Below are positions 40,121-49,327 of a stretch of 64,000 nt of DNA, in pieces (within the stretch, counting starts at the first letter, position 1; each line of letters opens with the position of its first letter). This DNA is from an uncultured Acidobacteriota bacterium (GTDB lineage: Bacteria > Acidobacteriota > Thermoanaerobaculia > UBA5066 > Gp7-AA6). Location: positions 96,001 to 160,000 of the forward strand of contig CAVXTP010000017.1 of the NCBI GenBank assembly GCA_963764715.1. The letters are read 5' to 3'. The position numbers and the translations under genes are program-made. The notes beneath the pieces are model-generated. The model was given only the letters and a program-made list of their open reading frames with translations. It was not told where the DNA came from and did no database searches.

Positions 40121-41332
40121 GTGACTTCCGCTTCGTCCGCCCTGGAGTTTCTGCGCCGCGGCTCGGTCGACCTGATCGAGGAGGCGGACCTCGCCCGCAA
40201 GATCGCGCGCGGCCCGGTCACCGTCAAAGTCGGTTTCGATCCCTCCGCGCCCGACATCCACCTCGGGCACACGGTGGTCCTGCGCAAGATGCGCCACTTC
40301 CAGGACGCCGGGCACCGGGTCGTCTTCGTGATCGGCGACTTCACCGGGGCGATCGGCGATCCGTCGGGCAAGAAGACGACCCGCCCCCAGCTGACGCGCG
40401 AGGAGATCGAGGAGAACGCCCGCACGTACACGAAACAGGCGTTCAAGATCCTCGACGCGGACAAGACGGTCATCGAGTTCAACGGCAAGTGGCTGAACGC
40501 CCTCGGCGCCGCCGGGCTGGTCCGCCTGGCGTCGCGGATCACGGTCGCCCGGATCCTCGAGCGCGACGACTTCCAGAAACGCTGGAGGGCGAACCAGCCG
40601 ATCGCCCTCCACGAGCTGCTCTACCCGCTCGCCCAGGGCTACGACTCGGTGGCGCTCAAGGCCGACGTCGAGCTCGGCGGAACCGACCAGCTCTTCAACC
40701 TGCTCGTGGGCCGCGACCTGATGCGCGCCGAGGGGCTGGAGCCCCAGGTCGTCATGACGCTGCCGCTCCTCGTCGGAATCGACGGCGTCGAGAAGATGTC
40801 GAAGTCGCTCGGCAACGCGATCGGCGTCCTCGACCCGCCGGGCGAGATGTACGGCAAGGTCATGTCGATCCCCGACGCGCTCCTCTGGAGCTGGTACGAG
40901 CTCCTGACGGACGCGCCGGCCGAGGAGATCGCGGCGCGGCGCCGCCGCGTCCAGGCCGGCCAGGAGAATCCGCGCGACGCCAAGGCCGAGCTCGCGCGCC
41001 GCATCACGACGGACTTCCACGGCGCCGAGGCCGCGGACCGGGCGGCCGAGGACTTCCGCCGGGCGTTCTCGCGCGGCGAGGTGCCCGCGGACGTCGAGAC
41101 GAAGGAGCTTCCCGCCGAGGGCGGCGGCCCGGCCGCGAAGACGCTCGTGGCGCTCGGGCTCTGCCCCTCGATGCGCGACGCGCGCCGGAAGCTCGAGGAG
41201 GGAGCGCTGAAGGTCTACGCCGACGGCGCGGGCGAGCCGCGCGAGGTCCGCGATCCCGAAGAAAAGCTCGCCCGACCCGGCGCGTCGGTGCTGCGCCTGG
41301 GGCGCCGCTTCATCCGCGTGGTCTGGAAGTAA
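40121..41332 (+). CDS. tyrS: Tyrosine--tRNA ligase
   Basis: GFDPSAPDIHLGH, GDPSGK, QGYDSV, GGTDQ, KMSKS. Confidence 0.97.
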   Translation: MTSASSALEFLRRGSVDLIEEADLARKIARGPVTVKVGFDPSAPDIHLGHTVVLRKMRHFQDAGHRVVFVIGDFTGAIGDPSGKKTTRPQLTREEIEENARTYTKQAFKILDADKTVIEFNGKWLNALGAAGLVRLASRITVARILERDDFQKRWRANQPIALHELLYPLAQGYDSVALKADVELGGTDQLFNLLVGRDLMRAEGLEPQVVMTLPLLVGIDGVEKMSKSLGNAIGVLDPPGEMYGKVMSIPDALLWSWYELLTDAPAEEIAARRRRVQAGQENPRDAKAELARRITTDFHGAEAADRAAEDFRRAFSRGEVPADVETKELPAEGGGPAAKTLVALGLCPSMRDARRKLEEGALKVYADGAGEPREVRDPEEKLARPGASVLRLGRRFIRVVWK

Positions 41333-41819
41333 ACGGCACGAGGCCCGTCCCGGCCCCTTCCTCGCTCGCGCCCTCCGAGGACTTCCGCCGCGGCCGGCAG
41401 GACCGGCAGATCCCGCGCATCTGGTGCGTATGGGAGAGCAGCACGAACCCGTGACGCTCGGCGACCTCGTCCTGGAGCTGCTCGATGCGCTCCTCGAAGA
41501 ACTCGATGACGCGTCCGCAGTGGTCGCAGATCAGGTGGTCGTGGTGGTCGCCGGCCCGCAGCCGCTCGTAGCGATACCCCGCCTCTCCGATGCGCAGGCG
41601 CCCGACGATGCCGGCGTCGACCATGAGCTCGAGCGTCCGGTAGATGGTGGCGCGGGAGATCTTCTTGTGCTTGGCGCGCAGCCGCACGAGGAGCTCGTCC
41701 GCCTCGACGTGCTCATGCCGGCTGAAGAGCTCGTCGAACAGGGCCTGGCGCTCGTGCGTGAGCTTGAGCCCCCGCCGTTCCAGGTACTTGCGAAAAATCT
41801 GCAGCTCGCGCTTTTCCAT
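41310..41819 (-). CDS. fur: Fur family transcriptional regulator
   Basis: LKLTHER, ISRATIYRTL, HHDHLICDHCG, GICRSC. Confidence 0.93.
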   Translation of the reverse strand: MEKRELQIFRKYLERRGLKLTHERQALFDELFSRHEHVEADELLVRLRAKHKKISRATIYRTLELMVDAGIVGRLRIGEAGYRYERLRAGDHHDHLICDHCGRVIEFFEERIEQLQDEVAERHGFVLLSHTHQMRGICRSCRPRRKSSEGASEEGAGTGLVPFTSRPRG

Positions 41820-41822
41820 GGG

Positions 41823-41841
41823 ATTGCGACTCTGTCTCAAT
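41823..41841. promoter_or_regulatory. Putative Fur box between fur and the FTR1 gene
   Basis: ATTGCGACTCTGTCTCAAT 19-bp inverted repeat 3 nt from the fur ATG; similar to 43592-43610. Confidence 0.7.
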
Positions 41842-41902
41842 TGCGGTACTCTCCCGCTTCCAGGCCGACAAGTCAAGCCATTCAGCGAAGGGAAACGAGG
41901 CC

Positions 41903-42694
41903 ATGTGGCAGGGATTCACGATCGCGCTCCGGGAGGGCATCGAGGCGTTTCTGATCGTCGCGCTGACCCTCTCCTATCTGGCCCGGACCCGGCGGCCCGC
42001 CCTGGCGCGGGCCGTGTACGCCGGGATCGCCGCCTCGGTCGTCACGTGCGCCCTCGCCGGGTGGTTCTTCTCGCGGGCCGTCAACCAGCCCCTCTGGGAG
42101 GGGATCCTCGCGCTCGCCGCGGCGGCCCTCGTCGGCAGCCTTCTCGTCTACATGAAGCGCGTGGCCTCGCGGCTGAAGTCGGACATCGAGAGCCGGATCG
42201 AGGCGAGCGCCAGCGCGGTCGACCCCGCGCGCGCGTTCTGGGGAGTCTTCGCGTTCACCGTCCTGATGATCACGCGGGAAGGCATGGAGACCGCCCTCCT
42301 GATCGCCACGGCCCTCTTCCAGATGAAGTCCTCCGCCGTCTTCCTGGGCCTCGCGCTCGGGCTGATTTCGGCCGCGGCGATCGGCGCCCTCTGGACGCGC
42401 CTGGGGAAGGGCGTCGACCTGAAGACGCTCCTGAACGTCTCGGCGGTCTTCCTGGCGATCTTCCTCGCGCAGCTCGTCCTCTACGGGATCCACGAGCTCT
42501 CCGAGGCCCGGCTCTTCCCCGCCTCGCAGGCGATCCACGACGCCACCGAGATCCTGGGTCCGGACGGGAAGATCGGCCGGCTTCTCGCCTACGCCCTCGC
42601 CGCGATTCCGACGGTCTGGCTGGGCGGAATGTGGTGGAAGCGCTGGCGCACGCGGGGGGCCGCTCCGGCGGCGCCGCGCACGAACGCGGCCTGA
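41903..42694 (+). CDS. FTR1/EfeU family iron permease
   Basis: Two RExxE motifs (LREGIEA, TREGMET), 7 TM, GIHEL. Confidence 0.92.
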   Translation: MWQGFTIALREGIEAFLIVALTLSYLARTRRPALARAVYAGIAASVVTCALAGWFFSRAVNQPLWEGILALAAAALVGSLLVYMKRVASRLKSDIESRIEASASAVDPARAFWGVFAFTVLMITREGMETALLIATALFQMKSSAVFLGLALGLISAAAIGALWTRLGKGVDLKTLLNVSAVFLAIFLAQLVLYGIHELSEARLFPASQAIHDATEILGPDGKIGRLLAYALAAIPTVWLGGMWWKRWRTRGAAPAAPRTNAA

Positions 42695-42698
42695 GCGC

Positions 42699-43481
42699 TC
42701 AGCGCGCCGGCGCGGTCGGGCTCGGCTGATAACGGACGCCCGGGGTCACGGCGGCGCCCGACTGGATCATCGCCTCGATCACGCGCGGCGGAATTCCGTC
42801 CGCCCGCAGCTGCTGGATCTCGGCGGTCGTCAGCGCGTAGCGCCGGTTCTCCGCGCGCACCGCCTCGAGGAGCGCGTCGTCCGAGGCGCCGGCCTGCTTC
42901 ATCCGCACGATGGCCGCGTACGGTTTCTCGCCGGCGGCCGGGGTCCCGAACCACGGCTGGTCCGGCACGATGTTCGCGGGCCGGGGGGGCGTGACCACGG
43001 GCGTCGGCGTGACGGGAACGATCTTGCGCAGAAAGCCGGCCGGATGCCCGCCGCCCGACCCGCAGCCGGCCTTCGCGTCGGCGGAATGCGTGAAGTGGAT
43101 GACGTCGCGGCCCCCCGGAACGTCGACGTACTCGCCGACGAGCTCGACCCGGTCGCCCGGGACCAGGACGAGACCGTCCCCGCCACACGAGAGGTCGTGC
43201 ACCACCCTGATTCTCCCCATCATGTCCACGGGAGTGTTGCGGTCGGCGCCGGCGGGTTGCTCGGCGGCCACGAAGTACGCGTCGAGCGTGACCTCGAATT
43301 CCAGGAACTTCCGGCCGTTCTTGTGAACCGTCTTCCGCGGCGCGGTCTCGACCCGGGCCTTCGCGGTGATCTCGACGTGCGGGCTCTTGGACGACGGGGT
43401 CTTCCCCGGACGGGCCGCTCCGGCCGCCGCCACGAGAACGGCCGCCCCGAGTCCGATCGCCCGCGCCGCGCGTCGAAGCAC
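42699..43481 (-). CDS. Hypothetical secreted protein (DUF3465-like OB-fold N-domain, helical C-domain)
   Basis: Signal-like N-terminus, HD..PGDRVELVGEY..VIHFTH..HPAG; CATAAT-N6-GTG. Confidence 0.6.
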   Translation of the reverse strand: MLRRAARAIGLGAAVLVAAAGAARPGKTPSSKSPHVEITAKARVETAPRKTVHKNGRKFLEFEVTLDAYFVAAEQPAGADRNTPVDMMGRIRVVHDLSCGGDGLVLVPGDRVELVGEYVDVPGGRDVIHFTHSADAKAGCGSGGGHPAGFLRKIVPVTPTPVVTPPRPANIVPDQPWFGTPAAGEKPYAAIVRMKQAGASDDALLEAVRAENRRYALTTAEIQQLRADGIPPRVIEAMIQSGAAVTPGVRYQPSPTAPAR

Positions 43482-43552
43482 GCGGGCATTATGGGTCAGC
43501 CGCTCCCGCGGATCCCCGCCCGGGCCCCCGGAAAGGCCGGTGCGCTCTCCTC

Positions 43553-43610
43553 TTGACGGACCGCGCCCGGGCGCACTATCCTTCCGACGCGACTGAGACT
43601 GAATCTCAAT
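43553..43610 (+). promoter_or_regulatory. Sigma70 promoter and putative Fur box of the apbE operon
   Basis: TTGACG-N18-TATCCT, then ACTGAGACTGAATCTCAAT (TGAGA-N5-TCTCA) at 43592-43610. Confidence 0.7.
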
Positions 43611-43644
43611 CCAAACGGACGATGGACGAGGAACGACGACGACG

Positions 43645-44670
43645 ATGCTGCCGCTCCTGACGCTCGCCGCCGCCCTGGCGGCCCCCGCCCGGCCCGTCCT
43701 CGTCGAACGGAGGGTGTCGTCCATGGGCACCGTCCTCGCGTTGACGGTCGCCGCGCCGACGCGCGACGGGGGACTCGACGCCTCCGAGCGGGCGATCCGG
43801 GAGATCCAGCGCGTCGAGGACCTCCTGACGACCTGGCGGGACAGCCCGCTCTCCCGGCTCGACGCGGCCCCGGTCGGGGCCGAGGCCCCGCTCGACGAGG
43901 AGCTCGCCGGCCTTCTCGCGACGACCTTCGCGTGGTCGGCCCGCACGGGCCGCGCCTTCGATCCGACCGTGATGCCGATCGTCCGCGCCTGGGACCTGCG
44001 CGGCGCGGGGCGGATTCCGTCTCCGGAAGAGCTCGCCGCGGCGCACGCCGCGACGGGAACCGGGCGCTTCCGCTTCGCGGCCGACGGACGGTCCGTGGCC
44101 CGGCTCGACCCGCGCGCGGGGATCGAGGAAGGCGCGTGGGGCAAGGGCTATGCGCTCGATCGCGCCGCGGAAAGGCTCGGCGGCGACGCCGGAGCGCTGA
44201 TCGACCTGGGAGGCCAGGTGCTCGCGCGCGGGCAGGACGATGCCGGCCGCGACTGGTCCGTCGCGATCGCCGACCCGCGGCGCCGCGACCGGCCGGTCCT
44301 CGCGCTGCGCCTTTCGAACGCCTCGGCCTCGACCTCGGGTGATTCGGAACGCCGCCGCGTCGTCGCCGGGCGCCGCATCGGCCATGTGCTCGACCCGCGC
44401 ACCGGCGAGCCCGCCGAGGATTTCGGGTCCGTGACCGTGATTGCTCCCTCGGCCCTCGACGCCGACATCCTTTCGACCGCGTTCTTCGTGCTCGGTCCCG
44501 ACGCGGGCCTCGCGCTCTCGGACCGCCTGCGGCTCGAGGGAGTTCCCAACGAAGCCCTCTATCTCGTGGTCCGCGGCGACGCGCTCGAAGCGCGGTCCAG
44601 CCCCGGAGTCTCCCGATTCTTGATCTCGGTCGACACGACGGTCGTGCACGGCCTTTCGACGGAGAGGTGA
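43645..44670 (+). CDS. apbE: FAD:protein FMN transferase
   Basis: SMGT, AFDPT, GKGYALD, DLGG, STSGDSE, HVLDPRTG, ADILSTA. Confidence 0.92.
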   Translation: MLPLLTLAAALAAPARPVLVERRVSSMGTVLALTVAAPTRDGGLDASERAIREIQRVEDLLTTWRDSPLSRLDAAPVGAEAPLDEELAGLLATTFAWSARTGRAFDPTVMPIVRAWDLRGAGRIPSPEELAAAHAATGTGRFRFAADGRSVARLDPRAGIEEGAWGKGYALDRAAERLGGDAGALIDLGGQVLARGQDDAGRDWSVAIADPRRRDRPVLALRLSNASASTSGDSERRRVVAGRRIGHVLDPRTGEPAEDFGSVTVIAPSALDADILSTAFFVLGPDAGLALSDRLRLEGVPNEALYLVVRGDALEARSSPGVSRFLISVDTTVVHGLSTER

Positions 44671-44684
44671 GGAGGATTCTTCCC

Positions 44685-46187
44685 ATGCATCGAGTCTCGA
44701 GAAGCGTCGTCGCCGCCATCCTCGCCCTCTCAGGCGCGCTCGCCGCGACGGCGCAGACCCCGACCCCCTCCCCCACCCCGGCGCCGGCCGCTCCCCTCTC
44801 GCCCGAGGAGCGGATCGAGCGCCTCGAGAAGCTCCTCGCCGAAACGCGCTCGGAGCTCGCCGAGGTCAAGGCGGCCTCCACCGGCGCCGCGACCGACGCG
44901 AAGCTCGCCGAGATCGAGCGCAAGGTCGACATCCTCGCCCAGGAGATCGAAGCGATGAAGCTCGGCGAGGCGGCGGCCTCGGGAGCTCCGCCGGCCGCTC
45001 CGGGCGAGGCTCCCGCCGTGGCCGCCGCGGCCGCGCCGCCCTCGCCCCGCACCGAAAAGCAGTCCCTCGACCGCTTCGGCCTCGGCCTCTCCGCGTCCAA
45101 GATCTACGGAATCAAGCGCGGCGTTTCGATCGGCGGCTACGGCGAGGCGCTCTACCAGAACTTCTCGAGCACGAACCAGAGCGACGAGCCCTCGGACGCC
45201 GAGGACCAGATCACGCTCCTGCGGGCCGTCGTCTACCTCGGCTACAAGTTCAACGAGCACTTCGTCCTGAACTCGGAGATCGAGTACGAGAACGCCGTCG
45301 TCGCGTCCGACAAGGGCGGCGAGGCCTCGGTCGAGTTCGCCTACCTCGACTACATGCACTCGCGCGAGCTCAACGCCCGCGCCGGCCTCGTTCTTCTCCC
45401 GGTCGGCCTCGTCAACGAGCTCCACGAGCCGACGGCGTTCCTCGGCGCCCTGCGGCCGGGCGTCGACGATGTGATCATCCCGACGACGTGGCGCGAGCTC
45501 GGCGGCGGCCTGTACGGCGAGCTCGGCCCCTTCGCCTACCGCGCGTATGCCGTCAACGGGCTCAACGCCGCCGGCTTCACCCCCGACGAGGGCATCCGCG
45601 AAGGCCGTTCGGAGGGCTCGGAGGCGCCGGCGACGAACTTCGCCGTGACGGCCCGCCTCGACTTCACCGCGGTTCCGGGGCTTCTCGTCGGCGCCTCGGT
45701 CTTCTCGGGCGACTCGGGCCAGGGACAGTTCACCCCCTCGGGGCAGAAGATCAGCGGCCTGACGACGCTCTGGGACGCGCATGCGGACTGGCGCTGGCGC
45801 GGGCTGTGGCTGCGCGGCGTCTACGCCCGGACGACGATCGCCCAGGCGAACCTCATCAACCAGCTCAACGATCTCGTCGGCGAGGAGTCGATCGGCAGCG
45901 TGCAGGAGGGCTGGTATCTGCAGGGCGCCTTCGACCTCTTCTCGCTCGAGGCGGGCGGGTCGCGCGCGGCGCTCATGCCGTTCGTGCGCTACGAGCAATA
46001 CGACACGCAGGCCGAGGTCCCGCTCGGCTACGCCCGGAACCCCGAAAACGATCGCACCGATCTGACGCTCGGCCTCGCCTACAAGCCGATCGACCAGATC
46101 ATCTTCAAGGCGGACTGGCAGCAGCGGCAGAATGCGGCCCGGACCGGAGTCAACCAGTGGAACATGTCGCTCGGATACATCTTCTAG
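44685..46187 (+). CDS. Outer-membrane beta-barrel/porin with N-terminal coiled coil
   Basis: Signal peptide, coiled coil, GGYGE, SEIEYE, VEFAYLD, NELHEP, PTTWRE, terminal YIF. Confidence 0.8.
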   Translation: MHRVSRSVVAAILALSGALAATAQTPTPSPTPAPAAPLSPEERIERLEKLLAETRSELAEVKAASTGAATDAKLAEIERKVDILAQEIEAMKLGEAAASGAPPAAPGEAPAVAAAAAPPSPRTEKQSLDRFGLGLSASKIYGIKRGVSIGGYGEALYQNFSSTNQSDEPSDAEDQITLLRAVVYLGYKFNEHFVLNSEIEYENAVVASDKGGEASVEFAYLDYMHSRELNARAGLVLLPVGLVNELHEPTAFLGALRPGVDDVIIPTTWRELGGGLYGELGPFAYRAYAVNGLNAAGFTPDEGIREGRSEGSEAPATNFAVTARLDFTAVPGLLVGASVFSGDSGQGQFTPSGQKISGLTTLWDAHADWRWRGLWLRGVYARTTIAQANLINQLNDLVGEESIGSVQEGWYLQGAFDLFSLEAGGSRAALMPFVRYEQYDTQAEVPLGYARNPENDRTDLTLGLAYKPIDQIIFKADWQQRQNAARTGVNQWNMSLGYIF

Positions 46188-46189
46188 GG

Positions 46190-46751
46190 ATGAACGTCCG
46201 GCGGCGGGCGCTCGCCTTCGCGGCGGGCGCCCTGCTCGCCTCGTCGCTCGAGGCGAAGGTCTTCCTCACCCGGGAGGAGGCCCTCCGGCTGGCGTTTCCG
46301 GGCGCCGAGGTCACGCGCTCGACGGCCTACCTGACCGACGCGCAGCGGCGCGAGGCGCAGAGCGCTTTCGCGCGACCCCGAGCTCCCGGCGGCGCTCGCC
46401 GCGTACTACACGGCGGTCAAGGACGGCCGCACGGTCGGCACCGCGTACTTCGACGCGCACCTCGTCCGCACCCTGCCCGAGACGATCATGGTCGTCGTCG
46501 ATCCGCGGGGAGCGATCGCGCGGATCGAGGTCCTGTCCTTCGACGAGCCCGAGGATTACCTGCCGCGGGCCGGCTGGTACGCTCAGTTCATCGGCAAACC
46601 CCTGAACGACGAGATGTCCCTGACGCGCGGCCTCCGCCCCGTCGCCGGGGCGACGCTGACGGCGCGCGCGACGACCGACGCGGCCCGCCGCGTCCTCGCG
46701 CTCCATCGCGTCCTGCATCCGCCGCCGCCCGCCGCCTCGCCGACGCCATGA
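46190..46751 (+). CDS. Exported FMN-binding domain protein (flavinylation substrate); apparent frameshift near 46361
   Basis: Signal peptide and KVFLTREEAL in one frame; YFDAHLVRT..VLSFDEP.DY..WYAQF..VAGATLT in the next frame. Confidence 0.8.
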
Positions 46752-47185
46752 AACGCTGGGAAGCCTGGTGGAACCACGCGGCGCTCGCCGCAGTCTCGCT
46801 GACGGGGCTCGTCTACGGCATCGCCCGCTATTTCCTCCACAACCCGGACCCCGATTCGCGCCTCGGCCATCCGTGGCAGCCCGGACTGATGAAGGCGCAC
46901 ATCCTGGTGGCGCCGCTCGCCGTCTTCGGCATCGGCCTGCTGCTTCGCCGCCACGCCCTGGCGCGCATCCGCAACGGCGAATCGAACGGGCGCCGGACGG
47001 GAGCCGCGATGCTCTGGCTCGCGCTCCCGCTGGCGCTCTCGGGGTACCTCGTGCAGGTCTTCGTCAGCCAGTCCGCGACGCGGCTGACGGGCTGGTCGCA
47101 CGCCGGCCTCGGCGCGGTCTTCCTTCTCGCGTACGCCTTCCATCCCAAGCGCCGCGCCCCGTCGGACGCCGGCACGGACGAGTGA
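46748..47185 (+). CDS. 4-TM His-containing membrane protein, candidate cytochrome b (DUF4405-like)
   Basis: Four TM helices with WNH, KAH, RRH, WSH, FH; ATGA-coupled to the FMN-binding gene. Confidence 0.6.
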   Translation: MKRWEAWWNHAALAAVSLTGLVYGIARYFLHNPDPDSRLGHPWQPGLMKAHILVAPLAVFGIGLLLRRHALARIRNGESNGRRTGAAMLWLALPLALSGYLVQVFVSQSATRLTGWSHAGLGAVFLLAYAFHPKRRAPSDAGTDE

Positions 47186-47197
47186 GGCGCCGCCGCC

Positions 47198-48118
47198 TCA
47201 GAAGACGTACGTCAGGCCGGCCGTGTACGCGGGCTTGATGTCCTGGATGCCGTTCAGGTCCTCCCAAACCGGAAACTGGGCGGCCGCGCGGGCGACCAGG
47301 CCCTTGACGACGTTCACGCCAACGCGCGGCGTGATGTACAGGCTCCGGCCTCCGGTGTCCGGATCGGGCACGCCGAGAGCGTCGACCTGGTCCCGCTCCG
47401 CGTCGAGGAAGTTGACCTCCACGACGCCGTCGAGCCAGTCGGTCAGCTTGCGGTCGTAGACGAAGTTGACCTGGACGTTGTCGCCGTACTTGTAGCCGAA
47501 ATCGTTGCGCCCGGTCCCGGTGTACGCGGCGGAGAGATACAGCGACGACAGCTCGTCGACGAGATAGAGCCCCGCGAGGCCGCCGGAGAGGTTGGTCGCG
47601 CCCGTCCCCGGCTGCACGTGCTCGTCCAGTCGCACGCCCTCCTCCGAGACGTCGTTCTTGCCCCACGGCGTCTTGACCGAGAAGACCGCCGAGATCCAGG
47701 CGCGCCGCCCGAGGGGCGACTGGAACGGCGAGGACCAGAGGCGAAAGTAGGCGAAAAAGACCGGGTCGCCGAGGCCGTCGGCGGTCTCGACCTCGTCGCC
47801 TTCCGTCAGGTGATTCCACATCACGGGGACCTGGGCGACGACGGTGAAGCGCTCGCGAAACCCGTAGGAGAGCGTCGCGATCATGGAGTTGCGGACCTGC
47901 TCCTCGAGGTCCGGGCCTTCACCCTGGCTCTGGTTCAGCCGGCTCCAGTCGAGGGCGATCTGGAAGCCGCCGTAGCTGTAGAGCCCCTCGCCGAGCGCGC
48001 TGAAGACGGGATCGCTGCAACGGCACATCGAGCAGGCTCCGGCCGAGGAGGGCACGAGAGCGAGGCCGAGAATCGTGAGACTGAACGCCGCCGCCAGGCG
48101 GAGATTGCCGCGATGCAT
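47198..48118 (-). CDS. Outer-membrane beta-barrel transporter (SphA/phenol-MetA-like) with N-terminal CxxCxC
   Basis: Signal peptide then ACSMCRC; GLGD, KTPWG, QPGTG; terminal YVF. Confidence 0.75.
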   Translation of the reverse strand: MHRGNLRLAAAFSLTILGLALVPSSAGACSMCRCSDPVFSALGEGLYSYGGFQIALDWSRLNQSQGEGPDLEEQVRNSMIATLSYGFRERFTVVAQVPVMWNHLTEGDEVETADGLGDPVFFAYFRLWSSPFQSPLGRRAWISAVFSVKTPWGKNDVSEEGVRLDEHVQPGTGATNLSGGLAGLYLVDELSSLYLSAAYTGTGRNDFGYKYGDNVQVNFVYDRKLTDWLDGVVEVNFLDAERDQVDALGVPDPDTGGRSLYITPRVGVNVVKGLVARAAAQFPVWEDLNGIQDIKPAYTAGLTYVF

Positions 48119-48172
48119 CAACGACTCCTTCCTGCTCCGGCGCGCGCGCCGGAGAAACCGGGATTCCGGGGG

Positions 48173-48517
48173 TCAGGAAAGGAGTTTGGGGACCGGGTCC
48201 GGCCGTTCCGAAAGAACGCGCAGGACGAAGCCGGCCGTCATCAAGGCGAGAAATCCCGAGAGCGGCAACGGGGCCGGTCCGGAGGGAAGCGCGGGCGCGA
48301 CGGCCCGCATCGCGGAAGACGGCAGGAACCAGCCGCCGGGAGACGGGCAGCGCCGCAGGGACTCGCCGCCGCCCGACGCGCAGCAGCACGCCATCCCGGT
48401 TCCGTGCTCGCAGGCCATCGCGCAGGCTTGACCCGCCGCCACCGTCGTCGACGGCAGCGCGAGGCTCGCGGGAATCGCGAGCGCGGATAGAAAGAGGATG
48501 CCTCCGAGTCTCCGCAC
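48173..48517 (-). CDS. Cys-rich leader/membrane peptide (DUF2946/CruR-like architecture)
   Basis: N-terminal hydrophobic segment, CAMAC..CCC..C, Pro-rich linker, C-terminal RPDPVPK; TACAAT-N7-GTG. Confidence 0.6.
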   Translation of the reverse strand: MRRLGGILFLSALAIPASLALPSTTVAAGQACAMACEHGTGMACCCASGGGESLRRCPSPGGWFLPSSAMRAVAPALPSGPAPLPLSGFLALMTAGFVLRVLSERPDPVPKLLS

Positions 48518-48571
48518 GGGGCGCATTGTATAGGCCCGACCGATACGATGTCCCCCCACAAAGGAGGTCCC

Positions 48572-49327
48572 ATGGTGACCCTGATCAAGAGGATCGGACA
48601 CGTCTTGGCCTCGACGGCGATCGCGCTGCTGAGCACGGGCGTCATGGGCGCTCAACAGCCGCGGCCCAACGCCCTGCCCACCACGCGCGAGGTCCCGAGC
48701 GGTTTTGGCGTCAACTCCTACACGGTCACGACGGTCTCGGCGATGTCCTTTTACCCGGGGACCAATCTCGCCTATGGCACGTCCGGCAGCCTCGGCCGCT
48801 ACACGAACACCAACACCCTGGTCGACTACTACGTCGGCCTCGATCTCCCTCCCGGCGTCATCATCGATTACATCGGCCTCAACAGCACGACCGACACCCC
48901 CTTCATCCTCGGAGTCGAGCTGTTGCGCCGGAACAAGTTCGGAAGCCTCTCGGTCATCGGAAACATCGACAGCCAGGTCCACGACTGGGACACGGACATC
49001 AATGCGGCCCCGATCGGCTACCTGTGGCACGGTGACCCCGGCGAGGCGCTGGTCCTCCACGTGCAGAACGGCTCCAGCCCGAATTTCCAGTTCTTCGCCT
49101 GGGCCGAAGTGTGGTGGAAGCGCTCGGTCAGCCCCGCGCCGTTGGCACCGACCTTCAACGACGTTTCGACCGGCCATCCGTTCTACCAGTTCATCGAGGC
49201 GCTCGCCGCCTCCGGTATCACCGGCGGGTGCGGCAACGGCAACTACTGTCCGGACAACCCGGTCACTCGAGCCCAGATGGCCGTGTTCCTGGCGAAGGCC
49301 CTCGGCCTGCACTGGGGTGCGGACTAG
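48572..49327 (+). CDS. Secreted protein with C-terminal S-layer homology domain
   Basis: SD AAGGAGGT; FNDV..HPFYQFIEALAASGITGGC..YCPDNPVTRAQMAVFL. Confidence 0.85.
   Translation: MVTLIKRIGHVLASTAIALLSTGVMGAQQPRPNALPTTREVPSGFGVNSYTVTTVSAMSFYPGTNLAYGTSGSLGRYTNTNTLVDYYVGLDLPPGVIIDYIGLNSTTDTPFILGVELLRRNKFGSLSVIGNIDSQVHDWDTDINAAPIGYLWHGDPGEALVLHVQNGSSPNFQFFAWAEVWWKRSVSPAPLAPTFNDVSTGHPFYQFIEALAASGITGGCGNGNYCPDNPVTRAQMAVFLAKALGLHWGAD

Follow-up and report, generated by a model that had tools for sequence, protein, structure and literature searches.

Covalent flavinylation by ApbE is now regarded as a general way of wiring the bacterial cell envelope to the membrane electron pool, and most of the gene clusters that encode such systems are uncharacterized. 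A survey published in 2021 (Meheust et al., eLife, PMC8238504) describes in its main text five membrane classes of these clusters and, in addition, a P19/FTR1 cluster with a gene for a protein that binds flavin mononucleotide (FMN). Assimilatory iron reduction is proposed there for several flavinylation clusters, the PepSY-like and MsrQ-like ones included. The small membrane proteins DUF4405 and FezC, associated with flavinylation and with ferrosomes, have been shown to bind haem b (mSystems 2024, PMC11334425). In Caulobacter crescentus both iron limitation and a fur mutation raise the expression of the operon CC_3059-CC_3063, which encodes a transporter, a DUF2271 protein, a DUF4198 protein, ApbE and a flavoprotein, by 12- to 51-fold (BMC Genomics 2013, PMC3751524). 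Among these accounts, the Caulobacter operon provides the nearest experimental parallel to a flavinylation cluster controlled by Fur, and a general link between ApbE clusters and Fur-controlled iron uptake has already been published. Here, we describe an operon, apbE-porin-FMN_bind-tm4, that occupies positions 43645-47185 of a 64,000-nucleotide stretch of DNA (the window) from an uncultured acidobacterium and lies close to a fur gene and to the gene for an FTR1-type iron permease. We propose that it encodes a Fur-repressed, flavinylation-dependent electron chain of the envelope that serves reductive iron acquisition, and we put the probability of this reading at roughly one half.

The genome that contains the window measures 4.36 Mb in 26 contigs, has a G+C content of about 70% and is 96.8% complete. 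Close homologues of the locus proteins are named Thermoanaerobaculia, phylum Acidobacteriota, in their source records. Genes were called from a listing of open reading frames together with Pfam and NCBIfam profile scans of the window proteins. For comparison we used a close set of 41 related genomes in the families f1, f2 and f3, from which 20 loci were fetched for gene order, and a wider set consisting of the best 80 of 582 loci that encode a relative of the porin (pattern scan, one genome per species).

As in the flavinylation clusters defined by Meheust et al. (2021), an ApbE-family gene and an FMN_bind substrate with a flavinylation site stand together in the locus. It shares with the clusters described in the main text of that survey a probably periplasmic ApbE, a putatively exported FMN_bind protein with an [S/T]GA[S/T]-type motif, a co-located iron transporter and a small histidine-bearing membrane protein as the presumed electron conduit. 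It differs from them by having none of the five membrane classes and no P19, and by a dedicated porin within the operon. No Pfam match to the NapH-, MsrQ- or PepSY-like, DsbD or NQR/RNF-like classes was obtained for any operon protein, and 39 members of the tm4 family did not match them even at E values of up to 10. The word porin is absent from the main text of the survey, whose supplementary cluster table may list such clusters unclassified. From the Caulobacter operon the locus differs by FMN_bind in place of DUF2271 and by the additional porin and tm4; moreover, regulation was measured in Caulobacter, while it is predicted here. A search of the full-text literature found no published description of the exact porin-FMN_bind-tm4-ApbE architecture, in agreement with a preliminary description of the locus, made from the sequence alone, that knew of no characterization of it. 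The new parts would be the membrane-protein family, the built-in stalked porin and the minimal Fur circuit on a flavinylation-based envelope redox system.

Components of the operon

The four genes on the forward strand form a translationally coupled operon. The stop codon of apbE (43645-44670) and the start of the porin gene (44667-46187) overlap by 4 nucleotides, 2 nucleotides separate the porin stop from the start of the FMN_bind gene at 46190, and the FMN_bind stop overlaps the start of tm4 (46748-47185) by another 4 nucleotides; these distances bear out the tight coupling claimed in the preliminary description. ApbE, the FAD:protein FMN transferase (FAD, flavin adenine dinucleotide), is a standard member of its family (PF02424, E 5e-62) with an N-terminal signal-like segment. 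A second ApbE, 37% identical, is encoded on contig C22 of the source genome. Judged by eye from the translations, the N-termini of ApbE and of its substrate consist of a hydrophobic stretch followed by Ala-x-Ala-like sites. The substrate matches PF04205 with 22.0 bits, exactly at the cut-off of 22, and contains the sequence VAGATLT, in which the predicted flavinylated threonine is encoded at 46653-46655. This motif had been recognized before as a flavinylation site, and the comparison strengthens the assignment: G-A-T is invariant in an alignment of 40 FMN_bind homologues (28-70% identical to the first sequence), and a [T/S/A]GA motif occurs in 88 of 96 loci. The A-G-A-T of the window is a minority form, most relatives having T/S-G-A-T. 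We predict from the motif that ApbE would flavinylate the threonine of G-A-T in the FMN_bind protein.

The FMN_bind gene carries a frameshift, already seen in the preliminary description, that is real in the assembly. The putative signal peptide and the start of the mature protein, ~57 codons in all (46190-46361), are read from the ATG at 46190, and the remainder, including VAGATLT, follows in the +1 frame (46362-46751). In a DNA alignment with the relatives' loci L013, L014 and L016 the window has one extra base near 46361. Contigs of about 90-99% identity from four of four public metagenome runs (four studies) are likewise without one base at 46361 or 46362; these contigs derive from relatives and not from the source organism, the best share of sequence words in any run being 0.19. 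Programmed frameshifting was rejected because 82 related loci, drawn from two locus sets that have some genomes in common, show an uninterrupted FMN_bind frame of 150-240 residues. Owing to the extra base and the high G+C content, the frame that starts at 46190 has no stop before 47185, and automatic annotation would yield a false FMN_bind-tm4 fusion of 331 residues. Split genes are also seen elsewhere in related metagenome assemblies: cobA in L018 (596-1157), a barrel gene discussed below (omb307) in L020 (1627-2500), and apbE, FTR1, the porin gene or tm4 in L039, L041, L054, L071 and L103. As the genes are split in different frames, single-base insertions and deletions appear to be common in the assemblies of this clade.

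It might be that the extra base is a true mutation, so that the only FMN_bind gene of this strain is a pseudogene, its system is broken and its operon is starting to decay. We give this explanation a substantial chance, a little short of even. The shift is present in the assembly and absent from the three relatives and from the near-identical contigs of all four runs, its site is not a long homopolymer run, and the 96.8% completeness of the genome argues against a very high rate of indel errors. However, the 3' part of the gene is 93.8% identical to that of L013 at the protein level and thus as well kept as the neighbouring genes (tm4 95.9%, porin 87%, apbE 85%), no other gene of the cluster is damaged, and split genes are common in related metagenome assemblies. 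The explanation concerns the strain and not the family, and it is compatible with any functional reading of the operon.

The porin of 506 residues has no match to any Pfam or NCBIfam family, and only 3 of 120 listed homologues carry a PF07642 label. It starts with a signal peptide and a Pro/Thr linker, continues with a coiled coil (residues ~46-104) and ends with a 16-strand barrel whose last residue is Phe. The AlphaFold2 model (mean predicted local distance difference test, pLDDT, 65.7; barrel blocks mostly 68-89, some loops 33-52) has two long, stalk-like helices at 46-70 and 74-104 and 16 strands. When this model was used as a Foldseek query, 286 PDB chains were found at E <=0.001, headed by OmpM1 of Veillonella parvula (8bys_A, E 3.2e-13) and followed by OmpF, OmpC, PorB and OprP. 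Language-model features resemble those of Porin_O_P (PF07396) clusters at 0.97-0.98, which we treat as a lead only. On these grounds the protein is a porin of the diffusion type with a stalk resembling that of OmpM. In some databases relatives of it are recorded as TonB-dependent receptors; the diffusion-type 16-strand barrel led us to reject this assignment. The likeness to OmpM1 and other 16-strand porins consists of Foldseek E values of 3.2e-13 to 4.6e-11, TM-scores on the target of 0.53-0.68 and the stalk. The differences are a sequence identity of 11-15%, a stalk tip without an SLH domain (none was found on the porin by Pfam) and the position of the gene within a redox operon. SLH-domain proteins are encoded elsewhere in the source genome, one in the window at 48548-49327 on the forward strand (PF00395, E 3.4e-11) and one on contig C21 (E 1.1e-10), which is noteworthy in view of the SLH anchor of OmpM1, the best structural match of the porin. 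In the MtrCAB porin-cytochrome conduits a barrel is also encoded together with periplasmic and membrane electron carriers, but the MtrB barrels are of far greater size and have a multihaem protein inside, while the barrel described here has 16 strands as in diffusion porins and its carrier would be a single-flavin protein.

The genes of the operon travel together. The porin is found in 26 of the 41 related genomes (18 of 24 in f1, 7 of 9 in f2, 0 of 7 in f3), and in all 20 fetched loci apbE, porin and FMN_bind occur together, joined by tm4 in 18 cases and in the other two by a different membrane protein, tmX. The 80 wider loci contain FMN_bind 76 times, tm4 58 times, tmX 15 times and ApbE 57 times, and porin, FMN_bind and a membrane protein are combined in 73 of them. 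These loci belong to Acidobacteriota, Gemmatimonadota, Methylococcales, Verrucomicrobiota (Akkermansiaceae, Kiritimatiellales) and Omnitrophota. The module is frequent in Acidobacteriota and Gemmatimonadota, two phyla that are abundant in soil and about whose iron acquisition little is known, and it is also present in methanotrophs.

The last gene product, tm4 (145 residues), is a four-helix inner-membrane protein and a candidate di-haem cytochrome b. Its AlphaFold2 model (pLDDT 79.9) consists of four helices. Histidines H51, H69, H118 and H132 do not vary among 39 close sequences or among 98 diverse ones, the latter 26-52% identical, and lie near both ends of helices 2 and 4, spaced by 18 and 14 residues. 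This arrangement would suit two bis-His haems bound in a four-helix bundle. Faint Pfam matches among the 39 members point to DUF4405 (PF14358; 15 members, best E 0.04), Ni_hydr_CYTB (PF01292; 13, best 0.003) and cytochrome b561 (PF03188; 5, best 0.017), and they also include hydrophobic noise such as TctB (19 of 39). One relative reaches 28.0 bits on Ni_hydr_CYTB, where the cut-off is 30.1, and hhalign of tm4 with one PF01292 protein gave a probability of 0.19. With DUF4405 and FezC the tm4 proteins share their small size, membrane location, conserved histidine pairs, a place beside apbE and a tie to iron redox chemistry. They are unlike DUF4405, for which six membrane helices are described (PMC11334425), in having four helices, and no tm4 member is significant for PF14358. 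As judged from sequence, tm4 is the founder of a family that has no Pfam model and falls outside the five described membrane classes of flavinylation clusters.

A profile of tm4 found 791 clusters (50% identity) at E <=0.001 among 1.84 billion representatives, 458 of them at <=1e-10. Twelve matches are longer than 440 residues; 11 of these are tm4-ApbE fusions, and the remaining one (P0252) carries a Phenol_MetA_deg barrel domain. The fusions among its long members tie the family firmly to flavinylation. However, they also allow tm4 to be seen as a partner of ApbE that serves either as its anchor or as the channel through which FAD for flavinylation reaches the periplasmic side, in which case the flavoprotein would receive its electrons from elsewhere. 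That tm4 fails the threshold of every cytochrome family would agree with such a role, as would the order porin, FMN_bind, tm4, apbE in L061 and the fact that an unrelated protein can substitute for it. This substitute, tmX, is an alternative four-helix membrane protein of 165-200 residues that replaces tm4 behind FMN_bind in 15 of the 80 loci. Its histidines 73, 75 and 88 are invariant (L030, 6637-7182, and 16 further loci), it has no Pfam affinity even at E 10, and hhalign with tm4 (probability 0.2) detects no relation. What speaks against a mere partner of ApbE is the placement of four invariant histidines in two layers, which would suit two bis-His haems and is unlike known flavin transporters, together with the faint family matches, all of which point to di-haem cytochromes. 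When the L013 flavoprotein was modelled in complex with tm4, the ipSAE was 0.42 (runs 0.45, 0.38 and 0.42), while the best of three controls reached 0.00. The mark is attained by 116 of 157 solved complexes and by 2 of 215 mismatches, and passes at or below 0.60 are more often wrong unless the contact was likely beforehand; the model therefore hints, weakly, at a contact between FMN_bind and tm4. Taking these points together, we regard a role of tm4 as ApbE partner as improbable.

Control of the operon

Two 19-bp imperfect palindromes, which we call operators, accompany the locus. Operator 1 (41823-41841) lies between fur (41310-41822, reverse strand, 170 residues, PF01475, E 1.7e-32) and the divergent gene of the FTR1/EfeU-type iron permease (41903-42694, forward strand, 263 residues, PF03239, E 1.4e-28), 3 nucleotides from the fur ATG, in an intergenic region that is nearly invariant in 13 of 13 aligned relatives. 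By reading of the sequence, it appears to sit under both divergent promoters, between the candidate -35 and -10 hexamers of FTR1. Operator 2 (43592-43610) belongs to the operon. It begins 10 nucleotides past the -10 hexamer of a sigma-70-like promoter on the forward strand (TTGACG-18-TATCCT, 43553-43582), where transcription should start. In a consensus scan this promoter was the sole sigma-70-like match in the 6.6 kb from 41700 to 48300 (shuffles expect 0.2), and a similar promoter layout is seen upstream of the operon in relatives. In both operators 7 of 9 arm positions pair, and in direct alignment the two are identical at 14 of 19 bases, as counted by hand.

A position matrix was built from 32 orthologous sites taken by coordinates. 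In a scan of the 4.36-Mb genome the only two sites of at least 12 bits attributed to operators were operator 2, the best of the genome with 34.9 bits, and operator 1 with 33.4; the next match reached 14.4, and the maximum in the reversed-genome control was 15.9. A matrix of the 15-bp core gave two extra candidates, both on contig C21, at 22243 (21.7 bits) and 372602 (20.1 bits), with a control maximum of 13.6; apart from a protein kinase and an SLH protein, the open reading frames beside these two sites belong to no informative family. The preliminary description had claimed a sigma-70 promoter and a palindrome that recurs between fur and FTR1, and promoter scan and matrix confirm both. The operator upstream of the operon is kept in the relatives' loci L013-L030 and L032, and it was found upstream of the operon, or of fur where the genes are colinear, in 38 of 62 evaluable wider loci. 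Three further loci (L052, L056 and L103) show it to the eye, though the matrix missed them. The upstream sequences of the wider loci reveal a variant form in Gemmatimonadota, the 15-bp core of which is within two positions of what we take to be the textbook Fur 7-1-7 repeat, the consensus of E. coli.

The regulator of the window falls below the cut-offs of all NCBIfam Fur and PerR equivalogs. The only other Fur paralogue of the genome is encoded on contig C10 (252950-253770, PF01475, E 4.5e-19) and is directly followed by a rubrerythrin gene (PF02915, E 1.2e-30). This is a typical PerR arrangement, and the C10 paralogue looks like PerR. Because the other paralogue adjoins rubrerythrin, we consider the regulator of the window to be the Fur candidate. 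A peroxidase gene in relatives (see below) prompted us to consider that the window protein itself is PerR, which is less likely given the position of the C10 paralogue. A Fur-family gene is thus accompanied by palindromes of about 19 bp that lie beside or under promoters and are kept in relatives, as expected of a Fur regulon. We infer that the two operators are bound by the neighbouring Fur and mediate iron-responsive repression.

Proposed reductive iron acquisition and its alternatives

The FTR1 permease has the two RExxE motifs REGIE and REGME, scores 121 bits on the NCBIfam EfeU model (cut-off 255) and is single-copy in the source genome. With EfeUOB and FtrABCD the locus shares an FTR1/EfeU-type permease with two RExxE motifs and adjoining genes of periplasmic redox proteins. 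These known systems oxidise Fe(II). The locus differs from them in that no P19 (PF10634), EfeO or EfeB (DyP family) was found in the 96.8%-complete genome, which does contain feoB, and the candidate partner would be a covalent flavoprotein with conduit and porin. The genes fur and FTR1 are adjacent in 12 of the 20 relatives' loci, and a survey of the neighbourhoods of the porin family found fur in 24 and FTR1 in 23 of the 80 wider loci. Three arrangements occur. In the first, found in the window, fur and FTR1 diverge; in the second (L036 is an example) fur stands immediately before apbE and FTR1 is divergent; in the third (L077, L093, L104 and L105) fur, FTR1, apbE and porin are colinear in this order. 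In L104 the FTR1 protein encoded inside the cluster carries a fused FtrD-like domain. Among the 80 wider loci, 8 have Rrf2 together with a binding protein and 2 have bacterioferritin. In the f2 loci the operon adjoins a Fur gene, Rrf2 or bacterioferritin, and two loci of Methylococcales have a Fur-like gene and a TonB-dependent receptor directly upstream of the porin.

Based on this context we propose the following chain of events. When iron is scarce, Fur would leave both operators and thereby release the fur/FTR1 promoters and the start site of the operon. The operon would then yield a trimeric 16-strand stalked porin, a periplasmic FMN_bind protein, a periplasmic ApbE and the four-helix inner-membrane protein. 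ApbE would attach FMN to the threonine of G-A-T. The four histidines of tm4, which lie on helices 2 and 4 with one pair close to either face of the membrane, would bind two b-haems that pass electrons from the quinol pool to the flavoprotein, which in turn would reduce Fe(III) species that have passed the porin by diffusion. In this genus FTR1 would take up the Fe(II) so formed; where FTR1 is lacking, another importer such as FeoB would do so.

A more far-reaching version of this model can be offered tentatively, and we think it more doubtful than probable. Porin, flavoprotein and cytochrome would form a three-tier machine across the envelope in which the porin stalk holds the flavinylated protein under the channel, and the tm4 family would be a further class of flavinylation-associated transmembrane electron carriers, in addition to the five of 2021 and DUF4405. 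Together they would let iron cross both membranes by a reductive route that needs neither TonB nor siderophores and is governed by a two-operator Fur circuit of its own, and the machine, until now unrecognized, would be widespread in diderm bacteria (at least 582 genomes at species level, at least four phyla). If the proposed reading of the operon is right, a membrane component outside the described classes is added to the flavinylation systems, and the porin is, as far as our literature search went, the first found built into a flavinylation operon. The module could also explain how these bacteria acquire iron without TonB-dependent siderophore uptake. The small and clean Fur circuit, with two operators in the genome, would make the iron hypothesis directly testable.

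Several observations weigh against reductive iron acquisition. Module and permease are distributed over the families f2 and f3 in mirror-image fashion. Of the 9 f2 genomes, 7 carry the module and none carries FTR1; all 7 f3 genomes carry FTR1 and none carries the module (with G030, a genome flagged as unpublished, left out, the f3 figures are 6 of 6 for FTR1 and 0 of 6 for the module). In f1, 23 of 24 genomes have FTR1. From these mirrored distributions it follows that the module works without FTR1 and FTR1 without the module, and feeding FTR1 cannot be the general function of the module. FTR1-type permeases are usually coupled to the oxidation of iron and not to its reduction. The feoB gene of the source genome is present without an operator in the core-matrix scan, and 24 of the 62 evaluable wider loci have no operator by the matrix, the three in which one is visible included. 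The frameshifted gene is the only FMN_bind gene of the source genome. The assignment of tm4 as a cytochrome also meets difficulties. No Pfam model matches tm4 above threshold, its 98-sequence profile found nothing among PDB sequences (best E 0.8), and Foldseek with the tm4 model found nothing at E <=0.001 (best FdnI, 1kqf_C, E 0.29). VIA-align against 48,161 chains gave Z values from 10.1 to 7.6, all for four-helix bundles, a range that is uninformative for helical bundles; among the matches are a designed two-haem protein (9.6), CybB (8.7), FdnI (8.3) and cytochrome b6 (8.3). Finally, 4 of the 20 relatives (L014, L021, L022 and L023) carry a gene for a di-haem cytochrome c peroxidase-like protein as the first gene of the operon. 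It encodes 552 residues (CCP_MauG, PF03150, E 1.2e-6) between operator and apbE (L014, 2352-4010), and such a gene fits an oxidative or peroxide-linked role of the system at least as well.

The peroxidase-like gene is missing from the window, and short 3' remnants of it lie upstream of apbE in L015 and L019, a pattern that looks like repeated loss.

The preliminary interpretation holds in part. Operon, promoter, operator and flavinylation motif stand, the porin nature of the coiled-coil barrel is backed by the AlphaFold2 model, Foldseek and language-model features, the haem-protein-like histidine pattern of the four-helix protein is conserved in a way that fits two bis-His haems, and the link to Fur and FTR1 recurs in the relatives' and in the wider loci. 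The idea that the module feeds FTR1 is weakened by the comparison of f2 and f3, which excludes it as the general function. The separation of module and FTR1 at the family level is a warning that the gene neighbourhood of one genus does not define the function of a module.

Electrons might also flow in the opposite direction. Flavoprotein and tm4 would then be the electron sink of a ferroxidase-type FTR1 pathway, in which Fe(II) comes in by way of the porin, undergoes oxidation in the periplasm and is handed as Fe(III) to FTR1, while the electrons reach the quinones by way of flavin and tm4; in some relatives the di-haem peroxidase-like protein would help in the oxidation. Oxidation-coupled FTR1 permeases are known from yeast (with Fet3), Bacillus (with the EfeB peroxidase) and Brucella and Bordetella (FtrABCD, with the membrane ferredoxin FtrD). 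The fusion of FTR1 to an FtrD-like domain in L104 would suit such a pathway, and so would the peroxidase-like gene at the head of four operons, with its remnants in two more, and a source genome that has no EfeO, EfeB or P19 able to do the job. However, none of the 80 wider loci has the peroxidase gene upstream on the same strand, the f2 family keeps the module without any FTR1, and the published flavinylated iron systems are, as far as the accounts go, discussed as reductases. We therefore consider the reversed flow unlikely.

A further explanation accepts a redox chain under control of a Fur-family protein but not imported iron as its substrate, the nearby iron genes being connected with it by shared regulation only. 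Its electrons might go to a periplasmic peroxidase, to the repair of oxidised envelope proteins or to extracellular electron transfer on a small scale. The separate family distributions of module and FTR1 are in line with this, as are the peroxidase-like gene in the operon of 4 of 20 relatives and the many Gemmatimonadota loci that have no iron gene in the scanned flanks; flavinylated systems also serve many different reductases in the published accounts. Against it stands that fur, FTR1, bacterioferritin, Rrf2 and a TonB receptor recur independently beside the module in Acidobacteriota and Methylococcales. In addition, the operator is common to FTR1 and fur, with only two strong sites in the genome, and the protein likely to regulate the peroxide response is the C10 paralogue beside rubrerythrin. 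Thus, a substrate other than imported iron has a low probability in our view.

Neighbouring genes

Between FTR1 and apbE, on the reverse strand, lies a gene for a conserved exported protein (hyp267, 42699-43502) that has no Pfam or NCBIfam match and is regarded here as context of the system. It is syntenic in 12 of the 20 relatives' loci and in 17 of the 80 wider loci. Its GTG start is situated about 7 nucleotides past a CATAAT hexamer that is kept in relatives, which suggests a leaderless transcript. Upstream of the locus, tyrS (40121-41332, forward strand, from the listing of open reading frames) is convergent with fur, and the 3' ends of the two genes overlap by 23 nucleotides (41310-41332).

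Downstream, the operon is met by the convergent gene of an outer-membrane barrel of 307 residues (omb307, 47198-48121, reverse strand). The protein has no Pfam match, but its language-model features resemble, at 0.99, those of clusters in which 11-15% of the members carry Phenol_MetA_deg. The gene adjoins the operon in 11 of the 80 wider loci and is syntenic in the genus, and its product is a possible accessory of the system. Right behind its signal peptide, in a Cys-rich N-terminal region, omb307 has a Cys-x-x-Cys-x-Cys motif.

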